Below the pieces are notes generated by a model, which did not search any database, was not told the origin of the DNA, and was given only the letters and a program-made list of their open reading frames with translations. From an uncultured Acidobacteriota bacterium (lineage in GTDB: Bacteria; Acidobacteriota; UBA6911), in contig CAWEJX010000008.1 in NCBI GenBank assembly GCA_963809485.1, positions 256,001-320,000 on the forward strand: a stretch of 64,000 nucleotides of DNA. The letters run 5' to 3'. Positions within the stretch are counted from its first letter, which is position 1; each line of letters opens with the position of its first letter. Positions 7,691-47,631 of this stretch are shown one piece after another. Made by a program: the position numbers and the translations under genes.

Positions 7691-7939
7691 CCAATTCTCC
7701 TTTCTAATTTGTAATGACCTCGATAATATGGGCACGATCAGAGCTGAGAAACTGTCAGAACTGACAGGGGTGCTCCCGTTCATGCCTGAACCGGCTGCGA
7801 TCACCGGGTACAAACCGCAATAAATGGAGTTCACCAGCGCTTTTGTCCCCTGTATGCCTGCATTGTCAAATAATGAATCTGCCAATGGTTTAGGTCCCGC
7901 AATAATTCGGGTGGAGGGCTGCTGAATCAACAGCACCCT

Positions 7940-10237: not shown

Positions 10238-10455
10238 AGGACGTCAGCATGTACGCCTGAGTCTGGCAGCATGACGGCAGCCGAAAAGGCTCGAGGTTTT
10301 TCAGCCTGGCTGTCAGTCATAACTGTCATGGAAAAGGCTCCTTACTGCAGATGGGCACAGAGCTCGGGCTTTCTCTCTAAAGCCTGCGCTTCGCCTCCGC
10401 GAAGTTTGGTGTTCTCCGCGCATCTGCAGCTCGCCCTAATGTGGGAAAAAGGTTC

Positions 10456-23516: not shown

Positions 23517-23908
23517 AGTCAGATACCTCCGGCAAAAGCCGGAGGATTGAAAGATTTGAACCGCTCAAAGCGGTTGGAGGAGCTACGCCGGTCTTGAACG
23601 CTGACTTACGCGGGCAAAAGCCGATGAGGCGCTTCCGATCCCCTCAGAGGCCAGCGCTCCGCGCTGGACAGTTTTCTGCGGCGGCACTGTGGCAAGCGCC
23701 GTGCGGCACGGAGATGAAGGGTATGAGAAACCGGGCGTTTGCCACAGTGCCGCCGCAGAAAACTCCATCGGAAGCGCCTCATCGGCTTTTGCTCGCCGAC
23801 CCTCGCCGAACAAATCCGCGTTTGTCAGCGCTTTTATCAGCGTTTATCAGCGTCTCAAAATACGGAGCAGTCAAATTCTTTGAGTCCCCCGGCAGAGCCG
23901 AAGTTTAC
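23517..23908 (-). mobile_element. non-autonomous IS200-ended hairpin element, copy 2
   Basis: Near-identical to 11549-11940. Sits ~30 bp upstream of the pyk start. Confidence 0.75.
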
Positions 23909-28560: not shown

Positions 28561-28568
28561 ATCTTTCC

Positions 28569-28652
28569 CCAGTCTCCAGTCTCCAGTTTCCAGTTGCCAG
28601 TTTTGAGATTTGTTTTTAACTGAAAACTGGGAACTCTGAACTGGAAACTCGA
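28569..28652. repeat. heptamer inverted-repeat element B
   Basis: ccagtct ccagtct ccagttt ccagttg ccagttt / aactgaa aactggg aactctg aactgga aactcga (5+5 units). Confidence 0.9.
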
Positions 28653-28655
28653 TTC

Positions 28656-29534
28656 CTATTTGTCGAAATCATCCAGCACTTTGAAATAATCGTGTTTTTC
28701 GTGGGCGGCTTCCCGGACCCCTTTGTCCCTTCGCAGTTTGAAAAAGTTGAGTTCGCCTTCGTCGAGCACTTTATTGGTCTGAAAGCTGTGCATGATGTAG
28801 TGCTCCACCAGGCCCCGGTCGATTCCCATGGTGTGATAAATCAATTCCCGGGTAGCTTTGCCCAATGCAATACCGTCTTTGGGATGGAGGCAGAGCCCAT
28901 GAGCCAGGTTCCGGACTTCCTCATCGAGTTTGTCGGCCGGCACGGCTTTGTTGATCAGATTGTATTGCGCCGCCTTGATGCCGTTGAATCTGCGTCCGGT
29001 GAGGCAAAGCTCCATCGCTCGCGTCAGGCCGCACCGCAGGATCATCATGGGCGTAAGCGTCATGCCGCCCTGGCCCAGACGTTCCTCGACATGCCCCATC
29101 TGGCAGTCTTCGCTGGCGATGATCAGGTCGCAGAAACTCACGAGATTGAATGCGACGCCCAGACAATAGGTGTGCAGCTGCGCGATCGTGATCTTCTTGC
29201 AGTAAAGTATTCTCCTGTGGAAATCCACAAAAAGGTTCCTGTCGAATTCCAGCTTAACCCGCTGCGGAATGCGCTGCTTGCCCTTTTCGCCGGGTTTCGG
29301 CTCCCTCATGCCGTAAACAAATCCCACGCCGGTTAAATCGGCGCCGGCGCTGAAGGCGCGTCCTGCGCCTTTGAAAACGACGACTTTCACGTCATCATCC
29401 CGTTCCGCTTCGTTTAATGCCGCCGTCCAATCCCGGAAAATTTCGGGGCCGATGGCGTTGAGCCGGTCCGGCCGGTTCAGGGTGATAAATGCTACCTGTT
29501 TGTCTTTTTCGTATTTTATAAACTCCAGTTCCAT
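28656..29534 (-). CDS. enoyl-CoA hydratase/isomerase (crotonase) family protein
   Basis: ITLNRPDRLNA, GRAFSAGADL, CDLIIASED. Confidence 0.9.
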   Translation of the reverse strand: MELEFIKYEKDKQVAFITLNRPDRLNAIGPEIFRDWTAALNEAERDDDVKVVVFKGAGRAFSAGADLTGVGFVYGMREPKPGEKGKQRIPQRVKLEFDRNLFVDFHRRILYCKKITIAQLHTYCLGVAFNLVSFCDLIIASEDCQMGHVEERLGQGGMTLTPMMILRCGLTRAMELCLTGRRFNGIKAAQYNLINKAVPADKLDEEVRNLAHGLCLHPKDGIALGKATRELIYHTMGIDRGLVEHYIMHSFQTNKVLDEGELNFFKLRRDKGVREAAHEKHDYFKVLDDFDK

Positions 29535-29551
29535 GATGAGACCTCCGTTAT

Positions 29552-30769
29552 TTATTCAAGCACCCCTGAGGCAAGAAGCTCGACGAACTCCTCATCTGTC
29601 TTGCCCAGGATCTTCGTTAAGACATATTCGTTGTGCTCGCCCATGCAAGGGCTTGGCGTCGATGCCTGTGCCGGCGTCTTTGACAGAACCATGCTCGATC
29701 CCAGATGAGTGAACACGCCCATCTCACTGTGTTCCATGGGCCAGAAAAGTCCGCGCGCCCGCAACTGCGGATCTTCGAACAGGTCCGCCGAGTTTTCGAC
29801 GATGCCCGCAGGAACGCCTGCCGCCTGCAAAGCCGCCATTGCCTCCTCCGCTGTCCGGCCGGCCGTCCATGCATCAATCAAAGCATCCAGGGCCGCTTCA
29901 TTTTCTTTCCTGTGCTGCAGGGTGTCGAACTGGGGATCCTCAGCCAAATCCGGACGGCCCATGGTTTTGCATAGTGCAGACCACTGGCGGTCGTCGCTCA
30001 CAGCAATTGTGCACCACCGTTCCTTTCCCTTGCAGGGATACACATTGTGCGGTGCGCCATGCGGTACCGCGTTGCCCTTCCGGACCGGCTCCCTTCCGTT
30101 GACCGCCGCATCGAGGAGTCCGGGCAGCAGAAAGTAGAGCGCAGTTTCAAATTGCGCCAGATCGATGAGCTGGCCCTTTCCCGTTTTATCGCGATATTCC
30201 AGGGCCGCAATAAGGGCGGCCGAGGCGAAACGCGGACTGATACAGTCGGTGTAGGCGCCTACGCCAATCGGAAGCGGTCCCCTGTCCGGCCACCCGATGT
30301 AATTGGGAATGCCCGCAATGGCCGCCAGAATCATTCCGAAAGCTGCCAGATTTTTGTAGGGGCCTTCTGTCCCGAACCCGTTCTGCCGTACCATAATGAT
30401 GTCCGGCTTGATCTTCGTCAGGGCCTCGTACCCAAGCCCCCATTTGTCCATGACGCCCGGCGTGAAGTTTTCCATCACAACGTCGGCCCAGAAGATAAGG
30501 TCTTTGGCAACGCCGACCCCCTGAGGGCTGTTCATATTGAGCGAAAGGCTCATCATGTTAGCGCTGAAATGATTGAAGTAGCCGCTTCTGTTGAGACCGG
30601 GGACATTATCCTTGAAAGGCGCCGACGTCCTTGTGACACAAGGGCGATGACTGGTTTCCACCCGGACGACGGTTGCCCCGTAATCTGCAAAAAATTTCAG
30701 CGTCAGCGGCCCCACCATCGCCCAGTTAAACGCCGCTATCTTCAGATTGTCGAATACTTGATTGTTCAT
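29552..30769 (-). CDS. class III CoA-transferase (CaiB/BaiF; BbsF-like)
   Basis: WAMVGP, ADYGATVVRVE, ENFTPGVMDKWGLGY, AYTD, PHNVYPC. Confidence 0.9.
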   Translation of the reverse strand: MNNQVFDNLKIAAFNWAMVGPLTLKFFADYGATVVRVETSHRPCVTRTSAPFKDNVPGLNRSGYFNHFSANMMSLSLNMNSPQGVGVAKDLIFWADVVMENFTPGVMDKWGLGYEALTKIKPDIIMVRQNGFGTEGPYKNLAAFGMILAAIAGIPNYIGWPDRGPLPIGVGAYTDCISPRFASAALIAALEYRDKTGKGQLIDLAQFETALYFLLPGLLDAAVNGREPVRKGNAVPHGAPHNVYPCKGKERWCTIAVSDDRQWSALCKTMGRPDLAEDPQFDTLQHRKENEAALDALIDAWTAGRTAEEAMAALQAAGVPAGIVENSADLFEDPQLRARGLFWPMEHSEMGVFTHLGSSMVLSKTPAQASTPSPCMGEHNEYVLTKILGKTDEEFVELLASGVLE

Positions 30770-30780
30770 CCACTCCTCGC

Positions 30781-30860
30781 CGTTTCGCGTTTCCCGTTTC
30801 CGGTTTCCCGTTAAAGCCTTCCATTCCAAACGCGGAACCGGAAACGGGAAACGTGAAACG
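30781..30860. repeat. heptamer inverted-repeat element C (CGTTTCC class)
   Basis: cgtttcg cgtttcc cgtttcc ggtttcc cgtt / aacgcgg aaccgga aacggga aacgtga aacg. Confidence 0.9.
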
Positions 30861-30865
30861 TTTTT

Positions 30866-32962
30866 TTATATTTCACGGGCTGTGCGGAGGCCGGTGCCGA
30901 TTGCATCCGCAATCAGCAGGGGATCTTTGCAGTCGCCGATGGCATAGACTTCAGGCACTTTGCGCTTGAGGCTTTCGAGCAGATCGTTGTTTGGCGTCAG
31001 AGGCAAAGCCGTCACGATGCTGTCGGCCTCGATCGTCTGTCTCTTGCCGTCACCCGCAATAATGGTCAAGCCTCTATCGGTGACTTCCACGTACTCCTTG
31101 ACTCCGCTTATCAAAGTCACTCCCTTTTTCCTGAACCAGATTAGGAGATAGGCCTGAAGTGCATCCACCATGCCATCGCCGATCGTCGGCTTGGTCTCCA
31201 CGACGGTTACTTTTCGGCCCCGTTTGGTGAGAAATTCGGCAAGTTCGGCGCCCTGGATGGCTCCGCCGATTACGACAACCCTTTTCCCGACCGGCATGTA
31301 AAACCGGGTCAGGTCCCGTATGGTCTCGGGTTTAAAAAACTTCAAGTAAAACTTTAACTTTTGATGCAAAGCCACGCCGCTGACTACAATCGGCTTATCG
31401 ATGCCCGGGATTTTCGGGATTGTAGACGTAGCGCCGGTGGCCAGGAAAACCACGTCGGGTTTAAGCCTGTCGACCACGGAGAGATCCGCCTCCTGCCCGA
31501 GCTCGATTTTCACGCCAAGCTTGGCAAGCTGACGTGAAAAATAATTGATGATGAGCGACAGGTCTTCCGGATGGGTTCCCTTCACAATCGACGCTATGGG
31601 AAGCAATCCCCCGAGCGCGCTTGACTTTTCGTGAAGCGTTACATCGTGGCCCCTCAGAGCGGAGACCCTGGCTGCCGACATCCCTGCGGGCCCGCCGCCG
31701 ATCACGAGGACTTTTTTCCTTTTCTCCGCTTTTTCAATGGTGTTATAGGGGGTGCCCAACAAGCCGTTTATTCTGCATCTTCGGCTTCCGAGACAGTTGT
31801 CGCAGCCGGTGCACGGCTGGATGTCCTCCAGCCTTCCCTCCGCGATCTTTTTGGGATAATCCGGGTCGGCCAGAAGGCGCCGGGTCATCGCGATGAAATC
31901 AACCTTGCCCTCGCGGAGCAATCCTTCGCCGATGTCGGCATCGAGTTTGGCTACAACCGTAACAGGTATGGATACGGCGCTTTTGATCCCTGCGGCCGCG
32001 TAAATATTCGCGGCCACGCCTTGCTGGCTGGCATTATAGGCCTTTGGAAAAGCTTCGACCGGGATAGGAGGCTCCGGGTAGAAGAGGGCATCCGTGAGAT
32101 AGGCGCCCACGTGATAGCCCAGGAAGTGGCTTCGGACCTGCAGGGCGTCGGCGCCCGCAGCCTGGAGGCATTTGGCGATTTCCCTTGCGTCCTCATGAGT
32201 GAGGCACTGGCTGTCAGGAACGCCGATTCCCTGTCCCATCTCGATGCCGTTTATGATCATGGAAACGGGGAAGTCCCTCCCCAGGCGCTTTTTGATCTCC
32301 CGAATTACTTCCATCGCGAAGCGGGCCCGGTTTTCGATGCTGCCGCCATACGCATCGGTGCGCTTGTTCCAGAAGGGAGAGAAGAAGTTGTGCAGAAGGT
32401 GGCTGCTGGCTGCGTTGATGTCCACGCCGTCGAATCCCGCTTTCTGAGCCCGGACTGCTGCGCTGGCGAACTTGTCCACAATCTCCTGGATCTGCTCCAC
32501 AGTGAGCGCCCGGGGCACTTCGGCGTGAAAATCCCCATCGGACTGGAAGCTGACGGGCGACGCTCCTATGGGCGGCCCGTCGTACATCGGCTGCGGCGCG
32601 AAGGGGAGCTTGACCTGCCAGGGGCCGTCGTGATTCATCTGCATGAAAGTCGGGCAGTCATGTTTGTGAATGATTTTGACCAGTTCGCTGAGGCCCTGGA
32701 TGTATTTGTCATCGTCGATGCGGTACCTTTCTTTCCAGCGCACGCCCAGCGGGTAATCGATGGTGGGCGATTCAACAATCAACAGCCCCACACCGCCTCT
32801 GGCGATGCCTTCGTAAAATGCCAGGACTTCTTCCTGCATGTGCAGGTCGTCCTCGTGCCACATGAGCATGCCGGCGCCTGATTTGACGATTCGGTTTCTG
32901 GTTTTTACCGACCCTATGCGGCCGGGTTCGAGGAGCTTTTGGTATTTCGAAAAAGTACTCAT
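30866..32962 (-). CDS. NADH:flavin oxidoreductase (OYE barrel + 4Fe-4S + FAD; 2,4-dienoyl-CoA/enoate reductase-like)
   Basis: AGFDGVDINAASSHLL, NKRTDAYGGSIENRARF, CTGCDNC...C, VIGGGPAG. Confidence 0.9.
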   Translation of the reverse strand: MSTFSKYQKLLEPGRIGSVKTRNRIVKSGAGMLMWHEDDLHMQEEVLAFYEGIARGGVGLLIVESPTIDYPLGVRWKERYRIDDDKYIQGLSELVKIIHKHDCPTFMQMNHDGPWQVKLPFAPQPMYDGPPIGASPVSFQSDGDFHAEVPRALTVEQIQEIVDKFASAAVRAQKAGFDGVDINAASSHLLHNFFSPFWNKRTDAYGGSIENRARFAMEVIREIKKRLGRDFPVSMIINGIEMGQGIGVPDSQCLTHEDAREIAKCLQAAGADALQVRSHFLGYHVGAYLTDALFYPEPPIPVEAFPKAYNASQQGVAANIYAAAGIKSAVSIPVTVVAKLDADIGEGLLREGKVDFIAMTRRLLADPDYPKKIAEGRLEDIQPCTGCDNCLGSRRCRINGLLGTPYNTIEKAEKRKKVLVIGGGPAGMSAARVSALRGHDVTLHEKSSALGGLLPIASIVKGTHPEDLSLIINYFSRQLAKLGVKIELGQEADLSVVDRLKPDVVFLATGATSTIPKIPGIDKPIVVSGVALHQKLKFYLKFFKPETIRDLTRFYMPVGKRVVVIGGAIQGAELAEFLTKRGRKVTVVETKPTIGDGMVDALQAYLLIWFRKKGVTLISGVKEYVEVTDRGLTIIAGDGKRQTIEADSIVTALPLTPNNDLLESLKRKVPEVYAIGDCKDPLLIADAIGTGLRTAREI

Positions 32963-32981
32963 TCGTTTCACCTTTTTGAGA

Positions 32982-33056
32982 GGTTTCCCGTTTTCAGGTT
33001 CCCGGTTTCCCGTTCTGATTTCTTGAATTTGAACGGGAAAGAACGGGGAACCTGAA
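32982..33056. repeat. heptamer inverted-repeat element D
   Basis: Five GTT cores in 32982-33014. Right arm gaacgggaa...gggaacctgaa is complementary. Confidence 0.8.
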
Positions 33057-33058
33057 TT

Positions 33059-34303
33059 CTAGATAACTCCAGATTCTCTCATGAATGCGATTTGGTTCTC
33101 TGTCAATCCCAGTTCGCGGTAGACTTCGGCATTATGCTCGCCGACCATGGGCGCACGGCATTTGACGGACGTCTCATTTTCCGAAGATCGCGCGAACTGC
33201 TTTGGATACGGGATCGTCGATTGTAGTTCCGGATGCTCCATTTGCGTCCAGAAACCTCTGGCGGCGAGGTTGGGGTCGCCGAGCAGGTCCTTCATACCCA
33301 TAAGCGGGCAAATCGAGATGCCTCTCGTCGTCGCCGCTTCGAGCGCTTCAGTTTTTGTGCGTGTCATGAAAAACTCTGCGATAGGCTGCGATATCCTGTC
33401 TATCAATTCCTGCGTTGCGGTGGCCATGTCGAAACTTTCCCATTCGTAGGACAGAAGGAATTCGTTGGCCATGCCCTTTTCATTCATCCATTGCACCAGC
33501 TGGCGGCAGGTCTTGGCTCCCTGCTGCCCGCCGATCATGAAGAAAAATATGAAGCCGTCTTTGCACGGCCAAACCTGCCGCTGCAGGGTCCCCCGGCTGC
33601 TGGTGCGAAAGGTCCCCACCCGGCCGAGAATCAGTTTCTCGAGCTCCCAGTGCGGTATCGTTTGAGCCAGGAACCAGGCAGCGCTGTGCTGCATGGAAAC
33701 GTCCACATGCTGCCCATCCCCCGTCTTTCTCCTGAAATGATGTGCGAGCATGGAACCTACGGCAGCGTCCGCTCCGGCGTGAAGGCATGCCTGCGGCATG
33801 CTTATGTTCACTGGCCGTCGGTCCGAATCGCCGGTCAGAAAAAGCTCTCCGGCCATCCCCATGAGGACAAGGTCGGAAGCCTGATAGTGACGGTACGGCC
33901 CTGTCTGGCCAAAGGGCGTAATCGACGTCAGGATGATATCCTTCCGGATACGGCACAACTCGGGGTAGCCGAAGCCAAGCCTGTCCATCTCGCCCGGCGC
34001 AAAAGATTCAATGACAAAGTCCGCGGTTTTAGCCAGGTCGCGGAAAATGCGCCTGCCTTCCTCTGTCCCCAGATTGAGCGTGATTGCGCGCTTGCTGCTG
34101 TTATAGGCAAACCAGTAAAGGCTTTTTTCGGGATCCGTCTGATCGTGCCAGAAAGGACCGATTTTGCGTGAGGGATCTCCTCCGGGCCTCTCAACCTTTA
34201 TGACATCCACGCCCAGTTCGGCCAGGATCTTCCCGCACAGAAATCCTTTTTCGTCGGTCAGATCCAGGGCTCGATACCCTTCCAGCATTCTGGTCCGCGG
34301 CAT
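33059..34303 (-). CDS. class III CoA-transferase (CaiB/BaiF; BbsE-like)
   Basis: LDLTDEKGFLCGKILAELGVDVIKVERPGGD, SITPFGQTGPY. Confidence 0.9.
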   Translation of the reverse strand: MPRTRMLEGYRALDLTDEKGFLCGKILAELGVDVIKVERPGGDPSRKIGPFWHDQTDPEKSLYWFAYNSSKRAITLNLGTEEGRRIFRDLAKTADFVIESFAPGEMDRLGFGYPELCRIRKDIILTSITPFGQTGPYRHYQASDLVLMGMAGELFLTGDSDRRPVNISMPQACLHAGADAAVGSMLAHHFRRKTGDGQHVDVSMQHSAAWFLAQTIPHWELEKLILGRVGTFRTSSRGTLQRQVWPCKDGFIFFFMIGGQQGAKTCRQLVQWMNEKGMANEFLLSYEWESFDMATATQELIDRISQPIAEFFMTRTKTEALEAATTRGISICPLMGMKDLLGDPNLAARGFWTQMEHPELQSTIPYPKQFARSSENETSVKCRAPMVGEHNAEVYRELGLTENQIAFMRESGVI

Positions 34304-34307
34304 AATT

Positions 34308-34730
34308 TTATGCTTTCCCCCTGGCTTTCAGATCGGACCAGAGATCCGCAATGGCTGCCTTCACATCCGACGCGGGCGGGTATACACGGTCAAATCCCAG
34401 CTTCTTGAACTTTATCTCGTCGTCCTTGAAGTCGTGCTTCCCCACACCCAGGTTCCCGCCGATATAGAGAAGCACATCGTTCAGTCCGGCCTTGAGGCAG
34501 TTTTCCTTGAATCCCTGGACATCATTCTCGCCCATCCCATAAAGAGAACTCATCAGGATGGCATCCGCCTTGTTTTCCAGAGCGGCTTTGATGAACTCCT
34601 CCGGAGGCGTCAGGATTCCCAGCTCTATAACGTTGAACCCGCCTTCTCGGAGCGCCCGCGACAATATCTTTGTACCGATCACGTGGGCGTCCTTGCCCAC
34701 CGTCCCCGTCACTACAGTTGGATTAGCCAT
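34308..34730 (-). CDS. mamA: glutamate/methylaspartate mutase sigma (B12-binding) subunit
   Basis: DAHVIG (DxHxxG), SSLYG, YIGGNL, GFDRVYPP. Confidence 0.88.
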   Translation of the reverse strand: MANPTVVTGTVGKDAHVIGTKILSRALREGGFNVIELGILTPPEEFIKAALENKADAILMSSLYGMGENDVQGFKENCLKAGLNDVLLYIGGNLGVGKHDFKDDEIKFKKLGFDRVYPPASDVKAAIADLWSDLKARGKA

Positions 34731-34773
34731 AATTGCGTTTCTCCTTACACCGCGATTGACGATCTTTCAGAAG

Positions 34774-34843
34774 GAGTTTCCAGTTCCCAGGTAAAAGGCT
34801 TCAGTCTTAAAACTGGCAACTGGAAACTTGGAACTGGGAACTC
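34774..34843. repeat. heptamer inverted-repeat element E
   Basis: gagtttc cagttcc caggt / aactggc aactgga aacttgg aactggg aactc. Confidence 0.85.
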
Positions 34844-34845
34844 TT

Positions 34846-36309
34846 TTACGGTTTGCCGGTCAGCTGGCCTTTGCTGAAGGCCCAGAAATCCTGAACCAGG
34901 GCGTCATAATCCATCTGCCGGCCTTCCGCCTTTTCCCTTTCCGCTACTTTGGCGCGATGGAATTTCTTGACCTCTTCGGGGAATGGCAGATTGCCAAACT
35001 CCTTCCAACGTATGGCGCCGCGAACGTCCTTAATGCCCTGCACCAGGTCTTTCACTTGCCTGTTGGGGCTGAAACTTGAATCGAGGAATCCCTCTTCCAC
35101 CGATATCAGGCATCCAAGGACGACATCTCCGTCGCCCACTTCCAGGATTTTATTCATGAGCGCACGGATTTCGAGTTCGGCCATTGCCGCTTCTTCATCG
35201 ATTTCCTTCATTTTCAGGTCGATCTTCTGCCCGCGTATGACGTTCAGGAGCCAGTTGGTCGATTCGTAGCTTTGCGCGTGGGATTCTTCCGTGGGGATGC
35301 CCAGGGCTTCATCGATAGTTCTTATGGATACGGCCTCGACATTCCCGAGGGCGGCAACCATGGCTGTGTAATTGGGAAAAGCGAAGGCGGCTCCTACTCC
35401 CTGAGGCATGGGGAACAGCGGTGTATGCTGTGCGAAAACGCCTGCTATTTCCACGTCTTTGTAGCCAAATCTGTCCAGATACTCCCTCATCAGCCGGGGA
35501 GTCACCCGGATCCAGGCCAGGTCCTGCGCGAGATTGCCCATCAGATGAACGACGGAGGTTATGCTCTTGCCCCCCTGTTCGGCCACCATGAGCGCGTCTA
35601 CGATGGTGGTAGCCAGATTCACGGTCATCGGCTGCATGCCCGTAAGGATCCACCCATGATTGTCCGTGGAAATAATCACTCCCCGGTCGGCATAATAGCC
35701 GATCAGCCGCTGGACATACTGGCTTGCGGCCATGGATTGCTCCAGGGTTGCATACTTCTCGTAGGCTGCCCATGAGATAAAGGAAGATGCGGCGATTGCC
35801 GTCATGCCCGCAGCGAAAGCAATTTCGGTTGCCAGGGGATAGGATTTAAGGGAAAGCCTGGGATTAAAGGCTCCGCGATCGACGCTCTCGATGATTCTGC
35901 GCGTCTGCTTCACTCCGTAGTTGATGATCGGATATCCGTTCAGCAGGTTTTTGCCCGTCCTCCTCATCTCTGCCAGGAGGCTTTCCACTTTTTCGAAATC
36001 GAGCTGGCGCGTATAGCTGTCCGAGGTCACCGGGATGAAAGGCACTCCTGATTCAACCAGCTTTTTGGAGAGACTGATCTCGTCTTCAATCAATCCGGTG
36101 CCCGCCCTGGGAAATATGGCGGTTTTTCCCTCGTCGTGCAGCCTCCGGGCAACCTTATGCCAGTTCTTGGAGTCCGGCAGTTTCTTCTGATACTCGACCG
36201 CCTCAACAAGATCCACCTCACGGCCTGTCGGCCAGAGGGCAAGAACCGGTCCGCGCATTTTTAGAAAATCATTTTCATCAAGCCGCTTGTTTCTCAACTT
36301 GGTTTCCAT
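34846..36309 (-). CDS. glutamate mutase epsilon-like catalytic subunit with altered active site
   Basis: VLALWPTGREVDL, PRAG, DSYTR, LLNGYPIINYG, EALGIPT. Confidence 0.85.
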   Translation of the reverse strand: METKLRNKRLDENDFLKMRGPVLALWPTGREVDLVEAVEYQKKLPDSKNWHKVARRLHDEGKTAIFPRAGTGLIEDEISLSKKLVESGVPFIPVTSDSYTRQLDFEKVESLLAEMRRTGKNLLNGYPIINYGVKQTRRIIESVDRGAFNPRLSLKSYPLATEIAFAAGMTAIAASSFISWAAYEKYATLEQSMAASQYVQRLIGYYADRGVIISTDNHGWILTGMQPMTVNLATTIVDALMVAEQGGKSITSVVHLMGNLAQDLAWIRVTPRLMREYLDRFGYKDVEIAGVFAQHTPLFPMPQGVGAAFAFPNYTAMVAALGNVEAVSIRTIDEALGIPTEESHAQSYESTNWLLNVIRGQKIDLKMKEIDEEAAMAELEIRALMNKILEVGDGDVVLGCLISVEEGFLDSSFSPNRQVKDLVQGIKDVRGAIRWKEFGNLPFPEEVKKFHRAKVAEREKAEGRQMDYDALVQDFWAFSKGQLTGKP

Positions 36310-36317
36310 CTATTCCC

Positions 36318-36400
36318 CCAGTTCCCAGTTCCCAGTTCCCAGTTTCCGGTTTCCCTGTTTTGATTTCAACTCGAAACTCGAAACTGGGAACTTGGAACTA
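36318..36400. repeat. heptamer inverted-repeat element F
   Basis: ccagttc x3 ccagttt ccggttt / aactcga aactcga aactggg aacttgg aacta. Confidence 0.9.
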
Positions 36401-36401
36401 T

Positions 36402-37628: not shown

Positions 37629-37645
37629 ATCATCTCCCATCTCAA

Positions 37646-37762
37646 AATTACGAATTACGAATTACGAATGACGAATTTAAACAATCTACTTGGCTATCTA
37701 TCATAAAATGCAAACTGCAGATGTTGATTCAATTCGTCATTCGTAATTCGTAATTCGCAATT
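37646..37762. repeat. heptamer inverted-repeat element G (AATTACG class)
   Basis: aattacg x3 aatgacg aatt / aattcgtcattcgtaattcgtaattcgcaatt; 31/32 positions complementary. Confidence 0.92.
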
Positions 37763-39461: not shown

Positions 39462-39527
39462 ATCAAAACCTTCATTTTAAAAAATTCAGCTTACTTTAGT
39501 TTGGGAAATTTCGCACCCATATGATTG

Positions 39528-39689
39528 GAGTTCCCAGTTTCGAGTTCCCAGTTTCCAGTTGGATATAAATTGCTTTTGAATGGAGATTTTGAACCGGGAT
39601 TAAGCCTTACAGGATTTACTGCATGGGGGTGATGCCAGTTCCCAGTTTCCAATCCAAACTGGGAACTGGAAACTGGGAACTGGAAACTC
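39528..39689. repeat. heptamer inverted-repeat element H (with extra internal partial arm)
   Basis: Arms 39528-39560 and 39657-39689 (5 units each), plus ccagttcccagtttcc at 39635-39650. Confidence 0.88.
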
Positions 39690-39696
39690 AAAAGGT

Positions 39697-41178
39697 CTAA
39701 CCGAGCTTGCCTTGCCAGGGGCTGGCCGGTGTTCCGACCAGGTCGATCCAAACGTTCTTCATCATGCTGTATTCATCGAGGACCATGATGGAATTTTCCT
39801 TGCTGTGCCCCGACTCTTTGCATCCGCCCCAGGGGCATTCAAAAACAATGGACAGGTGCTGGTTCAGCCACACGGTGCCCACTTTGAGCTGCTTGGTCAT
39901 GACCAGGCCCAGCCGTATATCCTTGGTCCAGATCGATGCGCACAAACCGAAACGGGAGTCGTTGGCGATAGCCACAGCCTCTTCAGGAGTCCTGAATTTT
40001 GCCAGGGCAACCACCGGGCCGAAGACTTCCTCCTGCATGATCTCCGATTTGGGATCGCAGTCGCCAAAAATCGTGGGGGGAACGAAATATCCATCTTTCG
40101 TTTCCGGCGTATTGGGACGTTCACCGCCCAGCAGCAGTTTTGCGCCGGATCTCCTGGCACGCTCAACGAAGCGCTCGATGTTGTCCCTGTGGCCTTTGTA
40201 AGCGACAGGCCCGATCATAGTCTCAGGATTCAGAGGATCCCCCACACGCAGCAGCTTCGCGGCAGCAACAAATTTTTCGGCGAATTCGTCGTACACCGAC
40301 TCGTGAACAAGGTACCGGCTCGAGGCGCCGCAGTTCTGGCCGGAATTAAAGAAACCGCCCCAGATGGCCCCTTCGACGGTGGCCTTCATATCCGCGTCGG
40401 GAAGCACGATGAATGGATTTTTGCCCCCCAGCTCGCAAGCGACCGGTTTCACTGCAGCGCTGGCCAGAGCCAGGATCCGTTTCCCGGTTTCCGAATCGCC
40501 GGTAAAATTGATTTTGGCAATATAGGGGTGTTTGACCATGGCTTCTCCAACGGTAGATCCGGGACCAGACACGATATTAAGCACGCCCGGCGGGAATCCG
40601 GCCTTGGCGGCAAGCTCGCCAAGCTTCAGAACCGTAAGGGGAGCGCAGGAAGCAGGCTTCACCACGGCGGTGTTCCCCATCATCAACGCCGGGGTAATTT
40701 TGGATATTGCCGTAACAAGAGGGAAATTCCATGGCGTGATCAAACCCACAACCCCCAAAGGCTGGCGGATAGTAAAGGACATCGCCTGCGGGCCGACGGG
40801 CAGCGTTTTACCTGTTACCGCCCTTGCGACGCCGGCCATGAATTCGAAATGCTGCGCATCAAAGGTCATATCGAAATTGGTTGTTTTGAAAATTGGCCCG
40901 CCGTATTGCATGGTTTCCAATTTGGCCCACTCGTCCCGTTGAGCCCGGAGCAGCTCTGCCATCTTGAAGAAAATGGCAGCCTTATCGGTCGGGGATGTTT
41001 CCGCCCAGGCAGGCGCAGCCTTCCAGGCCGCCTCAGCCGCCCGGTCGACCTCTACCGAACTGCATTTGGGAGCGAGGCCTACGACCTTGCCATTTGCAGG
41101 ATTGATCACTTCCATCGTTTCCTTGGTAGATGCTTCGCAAAGCTCCCCATTGATTAACACCCGGTAATCTGAATTCAT
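39697..41178 (-). CDS. aldehyde dehydrogenase
   Basis: ITPWNFP, VKPAS, FTGDSETG, ELGGKNP, GQNC, EEVFGPV. Confidence 0.95.
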   Translation of the reverse strand: MNSDYRVLINGELCEASTKETMEVINPANGKVVGLAPKCSSVEVDRAAEAAWKAAPAWAETSPTDKAAIFFKMAELLRAQRDEWAKLETMQYGGPIFKTTNFDMTFDAQHFEFMAGVARAVTGKTLPVGPQAMSFTIRQPLGVVGLITPWNFPLVTAISKITPALMMGNTAVVKPASCAPLTVLKLGELAAKAGFPPGVLNIVSGPGSTVGEAMVKHPYIAKINFTGDSETGKRILALASAAVKPVACELGGKNPFIVLPDADMKATVEGAIWGGFFNSGQNCGASSRYLVHESVYDEFAEKFVAAAKLLRVGDPLNPETMIGPVAYKGHRDNIERFVERARRSGAKLLLGGERPNTPETKDGYFVPPTIFGDCDPKSEIMQEEVFGPVVALAKFRTPEEAVAIANDSRFGLCASIWTKDIRLGLVMTKQLKVGTVWLNQHLSIVFECPWGGCKESGHSKENSIMVLDEYSMMKNVWIDLVGTPASPWQGKLG

Positions 41179-41195
41179 GACCGCCCCCATATCTT

Positions 41196-41724
41196 GAGTT
41201 TCCAGTTCCCAGTTTCAAGTTCCCAGTTACCTGCCGGTTCATTTTAGACTGGACACTGGTAATCTACGGTTTTTGTTTATATGTCAGAAGATATTTTATA
41301 AAACCCCGAATTGCTGCGCGGGTTTCGCCCGCATGATTGTAGACATCCTGAAAGTCGGCTTTCGAAATGTATTTCTGATCCAAGGCCACGTAAAGCTCGC
41401 TCTGTACCTCAGAGCATGAGCGTTTGGCATATCGAAGGAAGCGAAGGAATTCAGCATTAGTCTCCGAATCGAATCCTTCCGCAATATTATGCATAGCCGA
41501 ACCAGCAGCGCTTTGAATCTGTCTTCTTAAGGCCAAAATCCCGGGCAAACTTGTCCTTATTTGTTAGGCCATAGATTTTACTGGTTAGCTCTCGAGCCAG
41601 CTGCCATGCCTTGATTTCCTCAAAACGCTGAATTTTCATGTTAGATACAGTTACTGGTTCGAAGTAGCCGGCTTCCATCAGAGCTATACCAAACTGGAAA
41701 CTGGAAACTGGGAACTCGGAACTC
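41196..41724. repeat. heptamer inverted-repeat element I enclosing the four-helix-bundle gene
   Basis: Arms 41196-41228 (gagtttc cagttcc cagtttc aagttcc cagtt) and 41692-41724 (aactgga aactgga aactggg aactcgg aactc). Confidence 0.9.
41264..41639 (-). CDS. four helix bundle protein (23S rRNA IVP / Avd-like family), one-base frameshift near 41530
   Basis: MKIQRFEEIKAWQLAREL...FARDFGL + RRQIQSAAGSAMHNIAEGF...EFLRFLRYAKRSCSEVQSELYVALDQKYI. Span is 376 nt, one base too long. Confidence 0.9.
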
Positions 41725-41726
41725 GT

Positions 41727-42488
41727 TTAATCGGCGACGATGCCTCCATCCACGGGCAGCGCGGCGCCCGTAATGTAAGAGGCTTCATCCGAGCACAGGA
41801 ACATGGCTGCGGCGGCTACCTCTTCAGGTTCGCCTATCCTTCCCATGGGAACTTTCTGGTCCATTGCCTTGACCATTTCCGGATTCGCGGCTACCAGGCT
41901 TTCATTCATGCCCGTCCGGATGGGGCCCGGGCAGACACAGTTAACCCGAATGCCTTTTCGCGCAAACTCCAGCGCGGTCGATTTCGTGATTCCCACAACT
42001 CCGTGCTTGCTGGCCGGATAGGCCGGATTGCTCGGCGCTCCAACCAGTCCCGCGGCCGAAGACGTGTTCACAATGGCGCCTTTCCCTAGCTTGAGCATTT
42101 GCGGGATCTCATATTTCATGCACAGCCATACGCTCTTGAGATTCACATTGATCATCTCTTCCCAGTCCGCGGCTGTGAAATCGGCCATGGAAGCAAATAC
42201 CTTATGAATCCCGGCATTGTTGAAAGCGCAGTCAAGCTTCCCGTAAGTTTCGACCGTTTTCTCTACTAAAGCTTTAACATCTGCCTCCGAAGATACGTCC
42301 GTTTTTACAAAAAATGCGTCGCCACCGGCATCCTTGATCCGGCGTAGAGTTTCTTCTCCCCGCTTGACATCGACGTCGGCGATTGCCACCTTTGCTCCTC
42401 TTTGAGCAAAGCCTATTGCGGCCGCTCTGCCGATGCCATAAGCCCCCCCAGTCACGATCACAACCTTGTTTCGATACTCGTTTGGCAT
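41727..42488 (-). CDS. SDR family oxidoreductase
   Basis: TGGAYGIG, LDCAFNNAG, YPASKHG, LPVDGG. Start MPNEY after GGAG. Confidence 0.93.
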   Translation of the reverse strand: MPNEYRNKVVIVTGGAYGIGRAAAIGFAQRGAKVAIADVDVKRGEETLRRIKDAGGDAFFVKTDVSSEADVKALVEKTVETYGKLDCAFNNAGIHKVFASMADFTAADWEEMINVNLKSVWLCMKYEIPQMLKLGKGAIVNTSSAAGLVGAPSNPAYPASKHGVVGITKSTALEFARKGIRVNCVCPGPIRTGMNESLVAANPEMVKAMDQKVPMGRIGEPEEVAAAAMFLCSDEASYITGAALPVDGGIVAD

Positions 42489-42515
42489 TTCTCTATCTCC
42501 TCTTTTCGGGGTCTC

Positions 42516-42588
42516 TATTTCCGGTTCCCGCTCCTCGCCGGCAATCTTGGTTGTCCTCAATGGAAAAGCGGAAACGGGAAACCTGGAA
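42516..42588. repeat. degenerate heptamer inverted-repeat element J
   Basis: tatttccggttcccgctcc / ggaaaagcggaaacgggaaacctggaa. Confidence 0.55.
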
Positions 42589-42639
42589 TGTCTATTCTTA
42601 GGGATGTCTTCAGCATTAGTCAACAACCGAAGAGCCCGT

Positions 42640-43947
42640 CTAATACTTCCCGGGTAGATAAGTTGCCATCTCCGGGAAAACAAAGAGCAGGATGAGGCAG
42701 AGGACAAGCGTAATCAGGAACGGCAGGACTCCTTTGTATATTCGGCCGATGGATTCCTGCGTGATGTTTTTTACAACAAAAGCCGCTACGGCCACAGGAG
42801 GCGTGATCACCCCGATCATCATCGTCACCCCAAGGACGATGGAAAACCAGATGGGGTCATATCCGAGCTTGACGGCCACAGGGAAAAAAATAGGCGTTGC
42901 TAAAATCATGAATGCGATGTCGTCGACGAAGGATCCGCCCAAAAGATAGATGAGAAGGATGACCACAAGGACCAGATGGGAGGGCAGAGGCAGGCTGAGC
43001 GTCCAGGAAGCCACGACGCCCGGTATTTTGGAAATGACGATGAAGTGGCCGAGCACCGCAGATCCCCCGATCAGCATAAGAACCATGCAACCCATGCGCA
43101 GCGATTCGCGTACGGATTTTGCGAACCCCCGGCAATCCAGGTCCCGCTTTAAAAGGGCAAGCAGGAGAACGGCAATAGCGCCGACGCTGCCCGCTTCCGT
43201 TGGCGTAAAATAGCCCGCCAGCATGCCTCCCACCGTAACGACAAAAATCAGCAGCGGTCCGAAAATTTGAGGCACCGACCGGGCGCGTTCTCTCCATCCC
43301 GCAGCCTCTGCCCTGGGGGCCAACGAGGGATTCATACGGCACCACAGGGCGATCGTCACAAGGAATAATGCGGCGATCAACAGACCGGGGACGATGCCCG
43401 CAAGAAACAATTTCCCGATCGATTGATCCGTGATCATGGCAAGGATTATGAGAGTTCCGCTCGGAGGCAGGAGGAAGCCCAGAGTCCCCACACTTGCGAC
43501 TACACCGGTGGATAATTTCCTGCTGTAGCCGTATTTGTCCATCTCGGGAATGGCAACGCTGGAAAAGGTCGCTGTGGTTGCCAGCGAAGATCCTGAAATA
43601 GCCTTGAAAATTGTCGCGCCGACGACCGTCGCCATGGCCAGCCCTCCGGGCACATGGCCCACGAATTTCCGGGATGTCCCGTACATCTTTTCCGCAATCC
43701 CGGAATTGAAGGCCACCTGACCCATAAGGACAAAGAGCGGGATCACCACAAAAGCATAGGAGGCAAAGGCATCATAAAAGTCTTTAGCCAAAAGGTCGAC
43801 GGCGGCAGGAAAGGACCTCAGGATGCCGAATCCGACGAACCCGACAAAAGTCATGGCGAAAGCCAGTTCAATCCCCGTCAGGAAGAGCGCCAGCAGCAGG
43901 CCGAGACCGATACATCCAATCAGCACCTCGTTCATAGCAGGATTCAC
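42640..43947 (-). CDS. dctM: TRAP transporter large permease
   Basis: IPLFVLMG, GSSLAT, GTLGFLLPPS, FTPTEAG, ITPPV; highly hydrophobic. Confidence 0.92.
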   Translation of the reverse strand: MNPAMNEVLIGCIGLGLLLALFLTGIELAFAMTFVGFVGFGILRSFPAAVDLLAKDFYDAFASYAFVVIPLFVLMGQVAFNSGIAEKMYGTSRKFVGHVPGGLAMATVVGATIFKAISGSSLATTATFSSVAIPEMDKYGYSRKLSTGVVASVGTLGFLLPPSGTLIILAMITDQSIGKLFLAGIVPGLLIAALFLVTIALWCRMNPSLAPRAEAAGWRERARSVPQIFGPLLIFVVTVGGMLAGYFTPTEAGSVGAIAVLLLALLKRDLDCRGFAKSVRESLRMGCMVLMLIGGSAVLGHFIVISKIPGVVASWTLSLPLPSHLVLVVILLIYLLGGSFVDDIAFMILATPIFFPVAVKLGYDPIWFSIVLGVTMMIGVITPPVAVAAFVVKNITQESIGRIYKGVLPFLITLVLCLILLFVFPEMATYLPGKY

Positions 43948-44432
43948 CGTTCGCGTTTTTGTATCGTTCCCAGCAATTCGGAAAACAGGACCAGGGTTTG
44001 TATCAGGAAGGCGCCGCCTACGGCATAGGCCACGTAGTAAAAAGGAAAAGCCAAGACAGCCGTTACCTCGCCCGAAATCTTCAGACGGACGCCCATTTGT
44101 ATCGTGCCATAGCCGGCAAGAAGAAATATCCCGATGCCCATGCCTCGAGTAATCACCGCAAGCAAAAGATTGGACTTTGCCGAGAGTTTTGCCGTTAAAA
44201 GATCCGTGCTGACGTGCCCTTTCGCCATGGAAGTTGCCGGAAGAGCCAAACCGATGATCAATCCACCCGCGAGGGAGACAATCTCATAGGTCCCCGGGAC
44301 CGGGTGGCCGAAAAGCCTCCCGACAATGTCCGCTCCTATCAGCAGCATCACACCGATGAGGGCTGCCCCCGCGACAAATTCCATCCATGCGCTCAAATGG
44401 CCGGAGGCCTGGCTGAAAGACAATCGCATCAT
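43944..44432 (-). CDS. dctQ: TRAP transporter small permease
   Basis: Four TM segments, DIVGR..GHPVPGTYEIV, GHVSTD. Confidence 0.88.
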   Translation of the reverse strand: MMRLSFSQASGHLSAWMEFVAGAALIGVMLLIGADIVGRLFGHPVPGTYEIVSLAGGLIIGLALPATSMAKGHVSTDLLTAKLSAKSNLLLAVITRGMGIGIFLLAGYGTIQMGVRLKISGEVTAVLAFPFYYVAYAVGGAFLIQTLVLFSELLGTIQKRER

Positions 44433-44534
44433 TCTCTCTCCCCGCGACTCGATCGCGGTTTTCTTAGCCTGAAGACATGTCAACCCGAAAGCCTGATTCC
44501 ACAGTCTATAGGATTCATAAATTGCCGATACAAA

Positions 44535-45554
44535 TCATCGCTGCATGTTTTGCTGCACCCAGTCTTTGCAGAACTGCAATGCCTCCATCGCCGGCAAACC
44601 TCTGGCGGATTTCTCCTGTACCAAAGCTTCGTAGAGAGGCAATACGGCCCTCTCCCATCTTTTCTCTTCTTCGCTGCTTAGATAAATGGAGACGTGATCT
44701 TTTGCCGACCACTTTCTTATGGTGTTCTGATCCTTCTCGTCCCAGATCCGGCTTAGCTTTTCCGCGTATTCATCGGACATTTGGTTGATTATGTCCTGCA
44801 TTTCGACGGGAAGGCTGTTCCACTTGGCTTTGTTCATAAAAACGAGACCGGGGGCGCCCACAGAGGCATAGCGACTCACGGTGGTGTAATGCAGGATTTC
44901 GCCCCATTTAAGGGTCTCCAGCGAATCCCAGGCCGCCACCACGCCATCCACGATCCCTTTACGCAACGCATCGTAGGTATCGCTGGTCGGGATAACGATC
45001 GAGACAGCGCCCAGAGCTTCCAGGACCTTCGCTGCGTTGCCCCCCAGGCACCGAATCTTCATGCCCGATAAATCTTCAAGTTTCCTCACCGGTCTCTGGG
45101 TATGGAGCAGGCCGGGACTGGCGCTCAGGAAAAAAAGCACTTTCACCTGCTCCAGTTCCATGGGCTTGAAAGCACGAAAAAAGCCGTTGGACAACCGCGT
45201 CATCATAAAGGAGCTTCCGATGCCCAGAGGCTGTTCCATGACTTCAGTCAGCGGGAAACGGCCGGGGGTCAAGCCCATAGGCCCAAATCCGATGTCCGCG
45301 ATGCCCGTAGTCACGGAATCGTAGATTTGGGTTGCAGGAGTGAGAATTCCTCCAGGGTAATAGGTAGCCTGGATGCTCCCTCCGCTCCTTCGGCCCAGAT
45401 CCCTGCACCATTCTTCCAGCACCTGGCTGAGTTTGTCGTGGGCAGGCAGGATGCCGGAAAATTCGAGTTTGGTTATAGGTTTCTCCGGCCGGCAGGCTTG
45501 TCCGGCAAGCAGCGCAACGCAACAAAGCACCCGCAGGATATGTCTCATGCTCAT
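44535..45554 (-). CDS. dctP: TRAP transporter substrate-binding protein
   Basis: YPGGIL, GIADIG, TPGRFPL, LEDLSGMKIR (conserved Arg), YDALRKGIVDG. Confidence 0.9.
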   Translation of the reverse strand: MSMRHILRVLCCVALLAGQACRPEKPITKLEFSGILPAHDKLSQVLEEWCRDLGRRSGGSIQATYYPGGILTPATQIYDSVTTGIADIGFGPMGLTPGRFPLTEVMEQPLGIGSSFMMTRLSNGFFRAFKPMELEQVKVLFFLSASPGLLHTQRPVRKLEDLSGMKIRCLGGNAAKVLEALGAVSIVIPTSDTYDALRKGIVDGVVAAWDSLETLKWGEILHYTTVSRYASVGAPGLVFMNKAKWNSLPVEMQDIINQMSDEYAEKLSRIWDEKDQNTIRKWSAKDHVSIYLSSEEEKRWERAVLPLYEALVQEKSARGLPAMEALQFCKDWVQQNMQR

Positions 45555-45801
45555 AGCATCAATAAGTCAGCCATCATCATCGATTTTGTCAAAATAAGTC
45601 GGCGCCACACAATCCTGCAGCGGTCGAACTCCGTGATCCGCCCAAAAAATTCAGATTTTTCAGGCAATCCTCCATCGGCGAACTATCCTGCCCAAAAGCC
45701 GGAACGATCTTTCCTATATTAAGCCGAAGCCGTTTTTTTTTAGAGAAAATATCAAAGCGCTCCCATTTCTGCCCATTGGATGACATGCTAAAATCATCGG
45801 C

Positions 45802-47430
45802 ATGTCGACACAAGAAACTGTAAAGCCGGTAGAAATCAGTCCGCTTCGGCCGAAGTACGCCGAAAAAACGCCACCCTGTGTCTCTCACTGCCCGAATGAA
45901 GCCGATATCCGGGGCTGGATCACCACGATAGCACAGGCTGAAGCTTACGGGAGAACTGACGAGCAAGCCCTCGAGCTGGCATGGCGAAAAATCACCGATC
46001 TCAATCCCTTCCCCGCTATTTGCGGCCGTGTCTGCCCGCACCCATGCGAGGCGCAATGCAACCGCAAGGACAAGGATGGCCCTGTAGCCATCAACGCATT
46101 GGAGCGGTTTGTCGGCGATTACGGCATCGCCCGGGGATTAGGGCTTGAACGGCTTTCAGAAGACAAACGCCAGGACAAGGTTGCGGTCATAGGATCAGGT
46201 CCGGCAGGCCTTTCCTGCGCCTATCAGCTGGCTCGCCGCGGATATCCGGTCACGATTTATGAGGCCTTCAGCCAACCCGGCGGCATGCTGCGCTACGGCA
46301 TTCCCCAATACCGGTTACCCAGGGAGATATTGGACGCGGAAATTCACCGGATCCTGGATCTCGGGGTCGAGCTGAAGTGCGGCGTGATCGTTGGAAAGGA
46401 TATCTCCCTTGCGCAGCTGCGGCAGGAGTGCAAGGCAATTTTCGTCGGCATCGGCGCGCACAAGGGGCAGAGGCTCGGCATACCGGGTGAAGATGCCGGT
46501 AACGTTTTAACCGGCGTTGAATTTCTCAATCAGGTCAATAGCGGCCATCCCATGAACCTGGGCAGTTGCGTCCTTGTCGTCGGCGGCGGGGATACTGCCA
46601 TCGACGCAGCTAGAATCTGCAGGCGCCTGGGCGCCGAAGTCACAATACTCTATCGCCGGACCCGAGTCCGAGATGCCCGCAATCGCAAGGGAAATCGACG
46701 CCGCTATGGAAGAAGGAGTGGCCATTGAATTCCTGGCTGCGCCGACGGAAGTGCTTCGTGAAAATGGCACGGCGGTTGGATTGAAGTGCATCCGTATGGA
46801 GCTTGGAGCGCCCGATGCTTCCGGACGCTCCCGGCCGATGCCGATAGCCGGATCCGAGTTCGAAATAAAAGCCTCAACGATTATTGTCGCCGTCAGCCAG
46901 GAACCTGAATTGACCGCTCTTGCCGATTTGCAGGAAAACATGGAACGGATCCGGACCGATGAATGGGGAGCCACCGGCATCGCGGGTATTTATGCCGGCG
47001 GCGATGACCTCGAATTAGCCCTTGGTGGCCACAGCCGTATACCAGGGCCGATTGGCTGCCCAGGCGATCGATTCCCATTTCGCGGGGATAGATCCTGACA
47101 AAACCGGAGACACATCCTCCGGCTACCAAGGTGATCGCGGACTGGCATATGGAAGCGGAACGTCATGAACGGCAGCGTCTTCCGGTCGAGCAGCGCGATA
47201 TGGACGCTGAAATCGAGCAGGGCATGTCTCAGGAAGAAGCCCTCGAGGAAGCAAAACGCTGCATGTCGTGCGGCATGTGCATGGATTGCGAAAGCTGCTG
47301 GATGTACTGCACCAACAACTGCTTTGTCAGGCTTCCGAAGGGGGAGCACTACAGCATCAAGATGGATCTGTGCAACGGCTGCAAAAAATGCGCCGATGGC
47401 TGCCCCACCGGCTATCTCGAACTCGTTTAG
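45802..47430 (+). CDS. DsrL-like / GltD-family NAD(P)H iron-sulfur flavoprotein (frameshifted near 46670 and 47020-47100)
   Basis: KTPPCVSHCP..DIRGW, NPFPAICGRVCPHPCEAQCNR, GSGPAG, GGGDTAID, YRRT, EAKRCMSCGMCMDCESCWMYC...CNGCKKCADGCPTGY. Confidence 0.8.
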
Positions 47431-47630
47431 TTTCCAGTTCCCAGTTTCCAGTTCCCAGTTGGAAAAAGGATTGGAAATCATCAAAGGCATCGGAATTTGG
47501 CCATGCAGCGCATGAGAGACATATAGGCAGAGTCACCCCCAACAGCTATTCGAGCTCTTCCACTTTTGTGTTTTCCAGTCTTGGGTGGATGGTTTTGAAC
47601 TGGGAACTGGGAACTGGAAACTTGAAACTC
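47428..47630. repeat. heptamer inverted-repeat element K between convergent genes
   Basis: Arms 47428-47460 and 47598-47630 (5 units each), 137-nt loop. Confidence 0.9.
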
Positions 47631-47631
47631 A

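Follow-up and report, generated by a model that had tools for sequence, protein, structure and literature searches.

The elements considered here are heptad hairpins, pairs of inverted arms built from a tandemly repeated 7-nt unit, in a window of 64,000 nucleotides from the genome of an uncultured Acidobacteriota bacterium (G000, contig C8, positions 256001 to 320000; positions below are those of the window unless a contig is named). Our analysis favors, with a probability of roughly 55%, the view that they are intervening sequence (IVS)–type cassettes belonging to the IVP family (“23S rRNA intervening sequence protein,” PF05635), accompanied by gene-less elements derived from them, in which about five units per arm is the usual state here and the count is unfixed. 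The real mode of the unit number is five, both for this genome and across pooled IVP cassettes, but five is neither near-constant nor the mode of every genome.

Tandem Repeats Finder, an inverted-repeat finder, and a scan for self-similarity at a lag of 7 nt (lag-7 scan) revealed 11 intergenic inverted heptamer elements between positions 28563 and 47629. This region is a run of long open reading frames (ORFs), mostly on the minus strand, which were read by eye as acyl-CoA and organic-acid metabolism genes with no family search made; inverted repeats occupy almost every inter-ORF gap. Five cores at 7-nt spacing were found by the lag-7 scan and direct reading in 16 to 17 of the 22 arms, and those arms are 31 to 40 nt long. 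Both arms have five cores in the elements at 28563, 30781, 36317, 37646, 39529, 41194, and 47426, and one arm only in the elements at 32982 and 34811. The arms at 33032 and 34775 and both arms at 42518/42562 are degenerate or shortened. The unit sequence varies by element, with AGTTYCC, CGTTTCC, and AATTACG as examples.

One element, whose 33-nt arms are 88% complementary and 463 nt apart, encloses a PF05635 gene (Table 1). The window thus holds two traits of an IVS cassette, a PF05635/S23p ORF inside the element and inverted repeats at its ends that could pair into a stem of ~28 to 30 bp. A third trait, insertion into helix 9, 25, or 45 of 23S rRNA, is absent: the cassette sits between ORFs that read, again without a family search, as aldehyde-dehydrogenase-like and short-chain-dehydrogenase-like, and no rRNA or other Rfam family was detected in 28000–48000 at gathering thresholds. 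As assembled, the IVP ORF contains four stop codons, and its reading frame shifts. In related metagenome contigs from three of four runs, a base is missing at 41523 and the frame is thereby restored; the break probably reflects an error of the assembly or else arose very recently. The related contigs also differ by single-base deletions at 46665 and 47023/47024, within a gene at 45802–47430 that is split into three ORFs. The single-base deletions at frameshifted window genes (41523, 46665, and 47023-47024) probably mark indel errors in the assembly.

The association between IVP genes and heptad arrays extends well beyond the window. The genome contains three PF05635 matches (an intact gene on contig C1, the window gene, and a weak match on contig C20), and all three are flanked by inverted heptad arms, each of a different unit family. 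At 30 IVP loci of relatives (locus L008 included), 57 lag-7 arrays were found in the 14.2 kb lying within 250 nt of the gene versus 11 in 63.2 kb farther away (4.0 versus 0.17 per kb, a 24-fold difference), and inverted arrays stood on both sides of the gene at 19 of these loci. The corresponding numbers for 80 loci from many phyla, obtained by a locus scan with nine closer IVP sequences, were 115 arrays in 39.5 kb near the gene and 47 in 190.6 kb farther away (2.9 versus 0.25 per kb, 12-fold), with inverted arms at 42 loci, a one-sided array at 18, and no array at 10. Periods of 5, 6, and 8 to 11 nt were not enriched beside IVP genes at either the 30 relatives’ loci or the 80 cross-phylum loci.

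The same association is seen at the level of whole genomes. Among 201 genomes of the phylum, 108 of which carry an IVP gene, 73 had both an IVP gene and arrays (defined in this test as five-core AGT arrays), 35 had the gene only, 12 had arrays only, and 81 had neither, which corresponds to an odds ratio of 14; leaving out three unpublished genomes changes these counts to 71, 34, 12, and 81. Relatedness makes the genomes non-independent, so the p values of this test overstate. In IVP-containing genomes, the number of arrays climbs with the number of IVP genes (Spearman 0.63), while seven of nine IVP-less relatives have no array at all. Together with the arms around all three PF05635 matches and the concentration of arrays at IVP loci, this co-occurrence bears out the proposal of the initial annotation that IVP is a plausible partner of the arms. 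The IVP/S23p family is widespread, heptamer repeats are a long-noted bacterial oddity (available text of PMC4679880), and the tightness of the tie between the two is now quantified. Our literature search found no paper tying IVP genes outside rRNA to heptad arms.

Genome-wide, 341 lag-7 arrays were detected, as compared to 9, 6, 57, 90, 73, 170, 45, and 118 arrays at lags of 4, 5, 6, 8, 9, 10, 11, and 12, respectively; those at lag 10 stem from a separate element that is also present in many copies. A reverse-complement partner lay within 800 nt of 209 of the 341 lag-7 arrays versus 5 of 341 with a reversed, uncomplemented control. Merging yielded 131 non-overlapping hairpins, whose arms comprise at least 36 unit types. 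The hairpins fall into families, including 24 with a common CCGCAG/CTGCGG loop motif and 39 of the AWTKACG type, whose loops often have a short inverted motif at either end. At C19:41168-41912, C7:561480-562208, and C1:274829-275234, entire modules of arm, loop, and arm occur several times in head-to-tail order, with periods of ~102 and ~141 nt, which implies that the elements also multiply by tandem duplication.

The units share more than their length. When arms were oriented by the IVP gene, AG was present in 50 and AGT in 30 of 57 upstream units, and downstream arms were the complement. In 134 of 167 arms, AG is kept in a single phase in at least 60% of units, and AG is the exact starting point of 69 of 167 arrays versus ~24 expected. 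Within-arm variability is 0.08 to 0.09 at unit positions 3 and 4 versus 0.13 to 0.17 at positions 5 to 7, the low variability at positions 1 and 2 being partly built in by the phase choice. In the hairpins of this genome, in-phase AG was richer in the left arm in 55 cases and poorer in 8. Since an inverted pair reads alike on both strands, this polarity belongs to the element itself: the AG strand always provides the 5′ arm. Not every family has the core, as the AATTACG type is without AG. To judge from their sequence, the arms look like read sites: the AG(T) core is conserved, the spacer varies, and the polarity is fixed.

To describe the unit number, we counted cores per arm in the 131 hairpins. 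Among the 262 arms, 9 had two cores, 37 had three, 70 had four, 103 had five, 29 had six, 7 had seven, 5 had eight, and 2 had nine; some partner arms were taken from alignment and are possibly too short. Five is the commonest count, at 39% of arms. Five-core arms account for 45 of 78 arms in the AWTKACG family and 14 of 28 in AGTTYCC, while the TTAGGGA family spans three to nine cores and AACGTKG two to nine. In this genome, perfect runs of AGT spaced at 7 nt (14 with three cores, 17 with four, 24 with five, 1 with six, and 2 with seven) also peak at five and drop steeply above it.

IVP cassettes from other organisms gave a broader distribution. The set consisted of 29 loci from relatives (L008, which comes from an unpublished genome, excluded), the 80 cross-phylum loci, and the window’s own cassette, and 72 of these had arrays on both sides. 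Their 144 arms contained from 2 to 35 cores: two in 1 arm, three in 14, four in 23, five in 56, six in 14, seven in 9, eight in 12, nine in 1, ten in 3, eleven in 4, and at least 14 in 7. Arm length peaks at 30 to 31 nt (29 of 144 arms). The two arms of a cassette are often unequal (e.g., 54/30, 75/30, 68/32, and 35/102 nt), and the shorter one often stays at ~30 nt. The rules that emerge for the arms are a period of 7 nt only, an AG(T) core, the AG strand always as the 5′ arm, and a ground state of ~31 nt in many genomes.

In relatives, the peak at five is not general. Perfect AGT-core runs in 40 relatives numbered 700 with exactly four cores, 398 with exactly five, and 281 with six or more (pattern counts, four to seven cores), and in 20 relatives with at least 15 arrays, four-core runs outnumbered five-core runs in 13 and the reverse held in 7. 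This measure misses arms that end in a bare AG or a mutated core and therefore leans toward four. By the lag-7 measure, four cores were likewise the commonest count in relative G028 (14 of 43 arrays versus 11 of 43 with five). A backwards-read control of the pattern searches was matched by other real heptad arrays and was set aside as non-neutral. In G005, there were 20 AGT runs of exactly four cores, 21 of exactly five, and none of six or more. The genomes fall into two regimes, one in which AGT arrays almost never exceed five cores (G000, G005, and G026) and one in which 6 to more than 17 cores are common (G010, G015, G018, G035, and G039). The initial annotation had claimed that arms nearly always contain five heptamers; this is a fair description of the window but not of the rest of the genome (103 of 262 arms) or of IVP cassettes (56 of 144 arms).

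Comparison of orthologous sites shows that the count changes. The hairpin that follows a CoA-transferase-like gene has five and five units in the window and ~3 and 3.5 related units in relative G003, which is ~76% identical here. In the orthologous IVP cassette of G003, an open IVP frame is bordered by one arm of five units and another of two. Over a shorter distance, two metagenome contigs that span elements at ~93% identity have unchanged arm lengths. No 7-nt arm indel was present among 12 of 18 indels listed from contigs of the four metagenome runs, but these contigs often stop at arms, which makes the result weak on polymorphism. The earlier argument that counts are constant, unlike those of slippage microsatellites, is contradicted by the range of 2 to 35 in cassettes and by the G003 hairpin. 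The arms share with such microsatellites a unit number that differs between loci and species; they do not share an unconstrained unit sequence, orientation, and pairing, as they have an AG core, a fixed polarity, and an inverted partner.

Because the IVP-type fold is pentameric, the initial annotation proposed that each subunit contacts one heptamer. In the fuller form of this model, a homopentamer of IVP would bind a single-stranded arm, either RNA or DNA, with one subunit per AG-cored heptad; new elements would be born with five units, which are selected, and other counts would be later slippage noise or decay. The precedent is the TRAP ring, where the repeat number equals the subunit number and binding is proven. 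Like TRAP sites, the arms have a short conserved AG-holding core and variable spacers at a regular, fixed period, and the candidate reader is a putative ring homo-oligomer. Unlike in TRAP, counts range from 2 to 35, so that the repeat number does not equal the subunit number, and the reader is a candidate only.

What the initial annotation gave as established, the pentameric barrels of relatives, stands, and this clade’s protein is a putative pentamer. A profile of 22 IVPs matches the structures 2GSC (E = 4e-33) and 2RLD (E = 1e-13), solved relatives with five chains in each entry. The title of the 2GSC paper, as cited by PMC10053308, refers to “five four-helix bundles,” and the available text of PMC6182149 describes Avd as a pentameric, highly positively charged barrel. 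By a rough geometric estimate, a ring of five four-helix bundles has an outer circumference of ~190 Å, equal to ~7 nt of extended strand per subunit, which makes the model physically possible. It also agrees with five being the commonest count in the window, the genome, and the pooled cross-phylum cassettes; with the 30- to 31-nt peak in arm length; with the ~30-nt arm that often remains when the other has expanded; with arrays that have the AG core at their start and typically also at their end (four AG-N5 units and a closing AG); and with a steep drop above five in G000, G005, G026, G002, and G023.

Most of the count data speak against one subunit per heptamer. The unit-number histograms of the genome, the IVP cassettes, and the relatives are broad, a result that the initial annotation had itself named as refuting, and the inference rests on a constancy that fails across genomes, families, and orthologous sites. 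Arms of very different and often unequal length surround intact IVP genes, including the open frame in G003; four-core runs predominate in most of the relatives compared; and the match of five heptamers to five subunits goes back to the commonest count of one genome. Moreover, one intact, one frameshifted, and one weak IVP stand against 131 hairpins with at least 36 unit types, some without AG (AATTACG), and pairing of the complementary arms would compete with single-strand binding. Drift does not explain why counts in some genomes drop steeply above five or why arrays end on the core; these two features keep the model alive at low odds, and we give it a small chance of being correct. If true, a heptad-reading pentamer would supply a function for the 30-year-old IVP/S23p family and would account for the bacterial excess of heptamer repeats.

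An alternative is that only a duplex of ~30 bp matters, as an RNase III stem, a terminator or stabilizer, or a DNA cruciform, with the period arising from slippage and IVP being a passenger. When four gene-less hairpins (A, B, E, and F) were folded as RNA, ~30-bp stems were predicted with z scores of −5.0 to −10.3, and 0 of 200 shuffles folded as well. The window hairpins fill operon intergenic gaps almost exactly. Of 130 hairpins classed by gene context, 70 were co-directional and 38 convergent (108 in all), and 22 divergent, although these classes come from longest-open-frame calls and are too crude for conclusions. The available text of PMC4990558 reports that the Coxiella IVS stem is cut by RNase III, and that of PMC4679880 mentions that the prokaryotic excess of heptanucleotide repeats has been ascribed to polymerase slippage. 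However, a duplex needs no AG(T) core, no fixed polarity, and no array ends on the core, and it would not require that period 7 alone be enriched beside IVP genes. The genome-level dependence on IVP speaks against a passenger gene, and the G-U bias expected of an RNA stem is absent (see below). We consider a purely structural role rather unlikely.

The heptads could also be double-stranded DNA sites for a host protein or recombinase-like factor, with IHF/HU or a ribbon-helix-helix protein reading successive 7-bp heptads as candidates, and this factor would mobilize or regulate the cassettes. Arrays of 7-bp heptads are bound, for example, by the omega repressor of inc18 plasmids. Equal counts of G-U and A-C mismatches between arms fit a constraint at the DNA level, and the inward polarity is like that of terminal inverted repeats of mobile DNA. 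A close parallel is found in Geobacter metallireducens, whose class 3 “global regulator binding sites” are opposite-strand pairs at variable distance, 15 of the 16 individual sites having five tandem heptanucleotides (MTYCTGA), for which IHF/HU was suggested (PMC2700814, available text). Those sites are intergenic and multicopy, as here, and the complement of MTYCTGA contains CAG. In contrast to our results, the available text of that paper draws no IVP link, and its sister classes consist of four octamers or three 8-9-mers, so that five times seven is not general there. Against host-protein sites, no such gene tracks the arrays in this data, in which no search beyond IVP was made, and at least 36 unit types in one genome are beyond what one sequence-specific host protein would tolerate outside the AG core. 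A DNA-site explanation appears very unlikely.

The IVS-type cassette reading draws on the closest known system, the 23S IVS of Coxiella burnetii. According to the available text of PMC4990558, the inverted repeats at its ends pair into a 28-bp stem inside which RNase III cuts, and GACAGAT heptamers in tandem, in numbers that vary from strain to strain, lie upstream of the S23p ORF. The resemblance to this helix 45 IVS includes a small PF05635-family gene within inverted repeats, a stem of ~28 to 30 bp, heptamers in the upstream arm region, and a unit that contains AG. Unlike the Coxiella IVS, the elements described here lie between protein-coding operon genes and are mostly gene-less, and cutting by RNase III would be an extension from Coxiella. 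Parts of the pattern are thus already in print, as heptamers inside the Coxiella IVS (PMC4990558) and as the five-heptanucleotide pairs of G. metallireducens, described in the available text without an IVP link (PMC2700814).

Two further groups of repeats are relevant. The Beggiatoaceae TAACTGA repeats are direct repeats upstream of start codons, with 169 sets, one of them inverted, and each set holding two to six copies (available text of PMC4679880). They too are intergenic 7-nt arrays with a patchy phylogenetic spread, and the complement of TAACTGA contains CAGT; the paired inverted arms and the IVP link found here are not reported in the available text of that paper. The heptad hairpins also resemble MITE/REP dispersed hairpins, being present in many intergenic palindromic copies and in families with a common inner sequence. 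Unlike those elements, they have internally periodic arms, and their candidate parent gene encodes a four-helix bundle rather than a transposase. The STRR sequences of cyanobacteria are also heptanucleotide repeats.

As IVS-type cassettes, the elements could behave as follows. Each has two inverted arms composed of 7-nt units that share a conserved AG(T) core, and the AG strand is always the 5′ arm. New copies would spread inside families that have individual units and often a common loop sequence, and would usually have about five units, that is, four full units plus a core, or ~31 nt. Arms would then be eroded by point mutation and shortened or lengthened by slippage, so that counts would peak at five here and at four in some relatives and reach dozens of units in others. 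In transcripts, the arms would pair into a ~30-bp stem cut by RNase III, by analogy with the Coxiella IVS, and by the same analogy the hairpins may process or stabilize operon mRNA. The repeated AG core suggests that the heptads may be read by a protein, for which IVP is the first candidate, and the number read would not be fixed at five.

Several observations weigh against this scheme. Among arm mismatches in 68 cassettes, 60 were G-U in the gene’s sense versus 72 that were G-U only in the antisense, and hence no G-U bias exists in the sense of the gene. The hairpins are not clearly excluded from divergent intergenic regions, with 22 of the 130 classed there by the crude ORF-based classing. 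Arrays are present in 12 of 93 IVP-less genomes. The AG core and the array ends on the core suggest a protein reader, since a stem requires neither. Finally, AGT counts drop steeply above five in this genome and some relatives, for which drift alone is insufficient.

Table 1. Arms of the heptad hairpins and the IVP gene in the window.
Feature	Position	Strand	Description
Element A, left arm	28563..28602		Five CCAGT cores, 7-nt spacing; RNA fold z −4.96
Element A, right arm	28618..28652		Five AACT cores; more degenerate; 73% complementary to left arm
Element B, left arm	30781..30812		CGTTTCC-type units, five cores, 32 nt; arms 91% complementary
Element B, right arm	30829..30861		GGAAACG-type units, five cores
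Element C, left arm	32982..33014		About five units, one indel
Element C, right arm	33032..33056		Degenerate, ~3 to 4 units
Element D, left arm	34775..34790		Shortened, 2.3 units
Element D, right arm	34811..34842		Five AACT cores, 32 nt
Element E, left arm	36317..36354		CCCAGTT units, 5.4 copies; RNA fold z −8.04
Element E, right arm	36368..36399		Five AACT cores
Element F, left arm	37646..37676		AATTACG/AATGACG units, 31 nt, five AAT cores; arms 92% complementary; RNA fold z −10.26
Element F, right arm	37732..37762		31 nt
Element G, left arm	39529..39560		Alternating AGTTCCC/AGTTTCS units, 32 nt, five cores
Element G, right arm	39657..39688		32 nt, perfect 14-nt super-period; extra inner partial arm at 39635-39651
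IVP cassette, arm downstream of gene	41194..41231		Five AGTT cores
IVP / four-helix-bundle gene (PF05635)	41264..41639	-	73.7 bits versus a 33.8-bit cut-off; profile positions 30-104
IVP cassette, arm upstream of gene	41691..41725		Five cores; AGTTYCC-type in the gene’s sense
Element J	42518..42588		Degenerate pair, 2 to 3 units per arm (~42518-42534, 42562-42588)
Element K, left arm	47426..47460		Five AGTT cores; directly after the stop of a plus-strand gene
Element K, right arm	47594..47629		Five cores

Some features of individual elements deserve mention. Two unit variants alternate in many arms (AGTTCCC/AGTTTCC and, elsewhere, AATTACG/AATGACG), which produces a 14-nt super-period, for example at 39529-39688, 41197-41228, and 47429-47460. 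In element G, the best arm pairing is offset by one unit. In relative G003 (contig C3, positions 2870-11387 of locus L141), ~8.5 kb of other sequence is found exactly at the site of this hairpin (39445-39699), so the hairpin site coincides with a synteny break. At element K, contigs of all four metagenome runs join the arms with one base between them, skipping the 128-nt loop (47463-47592). The shorter side of these joins is only 30 to 35 letters long, and the contigs may represent short-loop copies from elsewhere rather than alleles. Summed contig depth at 37458-38104 was 265 to 516 versus ~10 to 30 in most other bins (2 to 12 in run X7); since this bin contains the AATTACG-type arms (37646-37762), those arms appear to be highly repeated in the sampled communities.

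The window also contains two copies of the separate multicopy element, at 11849-11887 and 23814-23853, in which about four tandem 10-nt units (AAACGCTGAG type, ~39 nt) follow a conserved flank of ~55 nt. Tandem Repeats Finder detected 230 period-10 arrays of about four copies in the genome.

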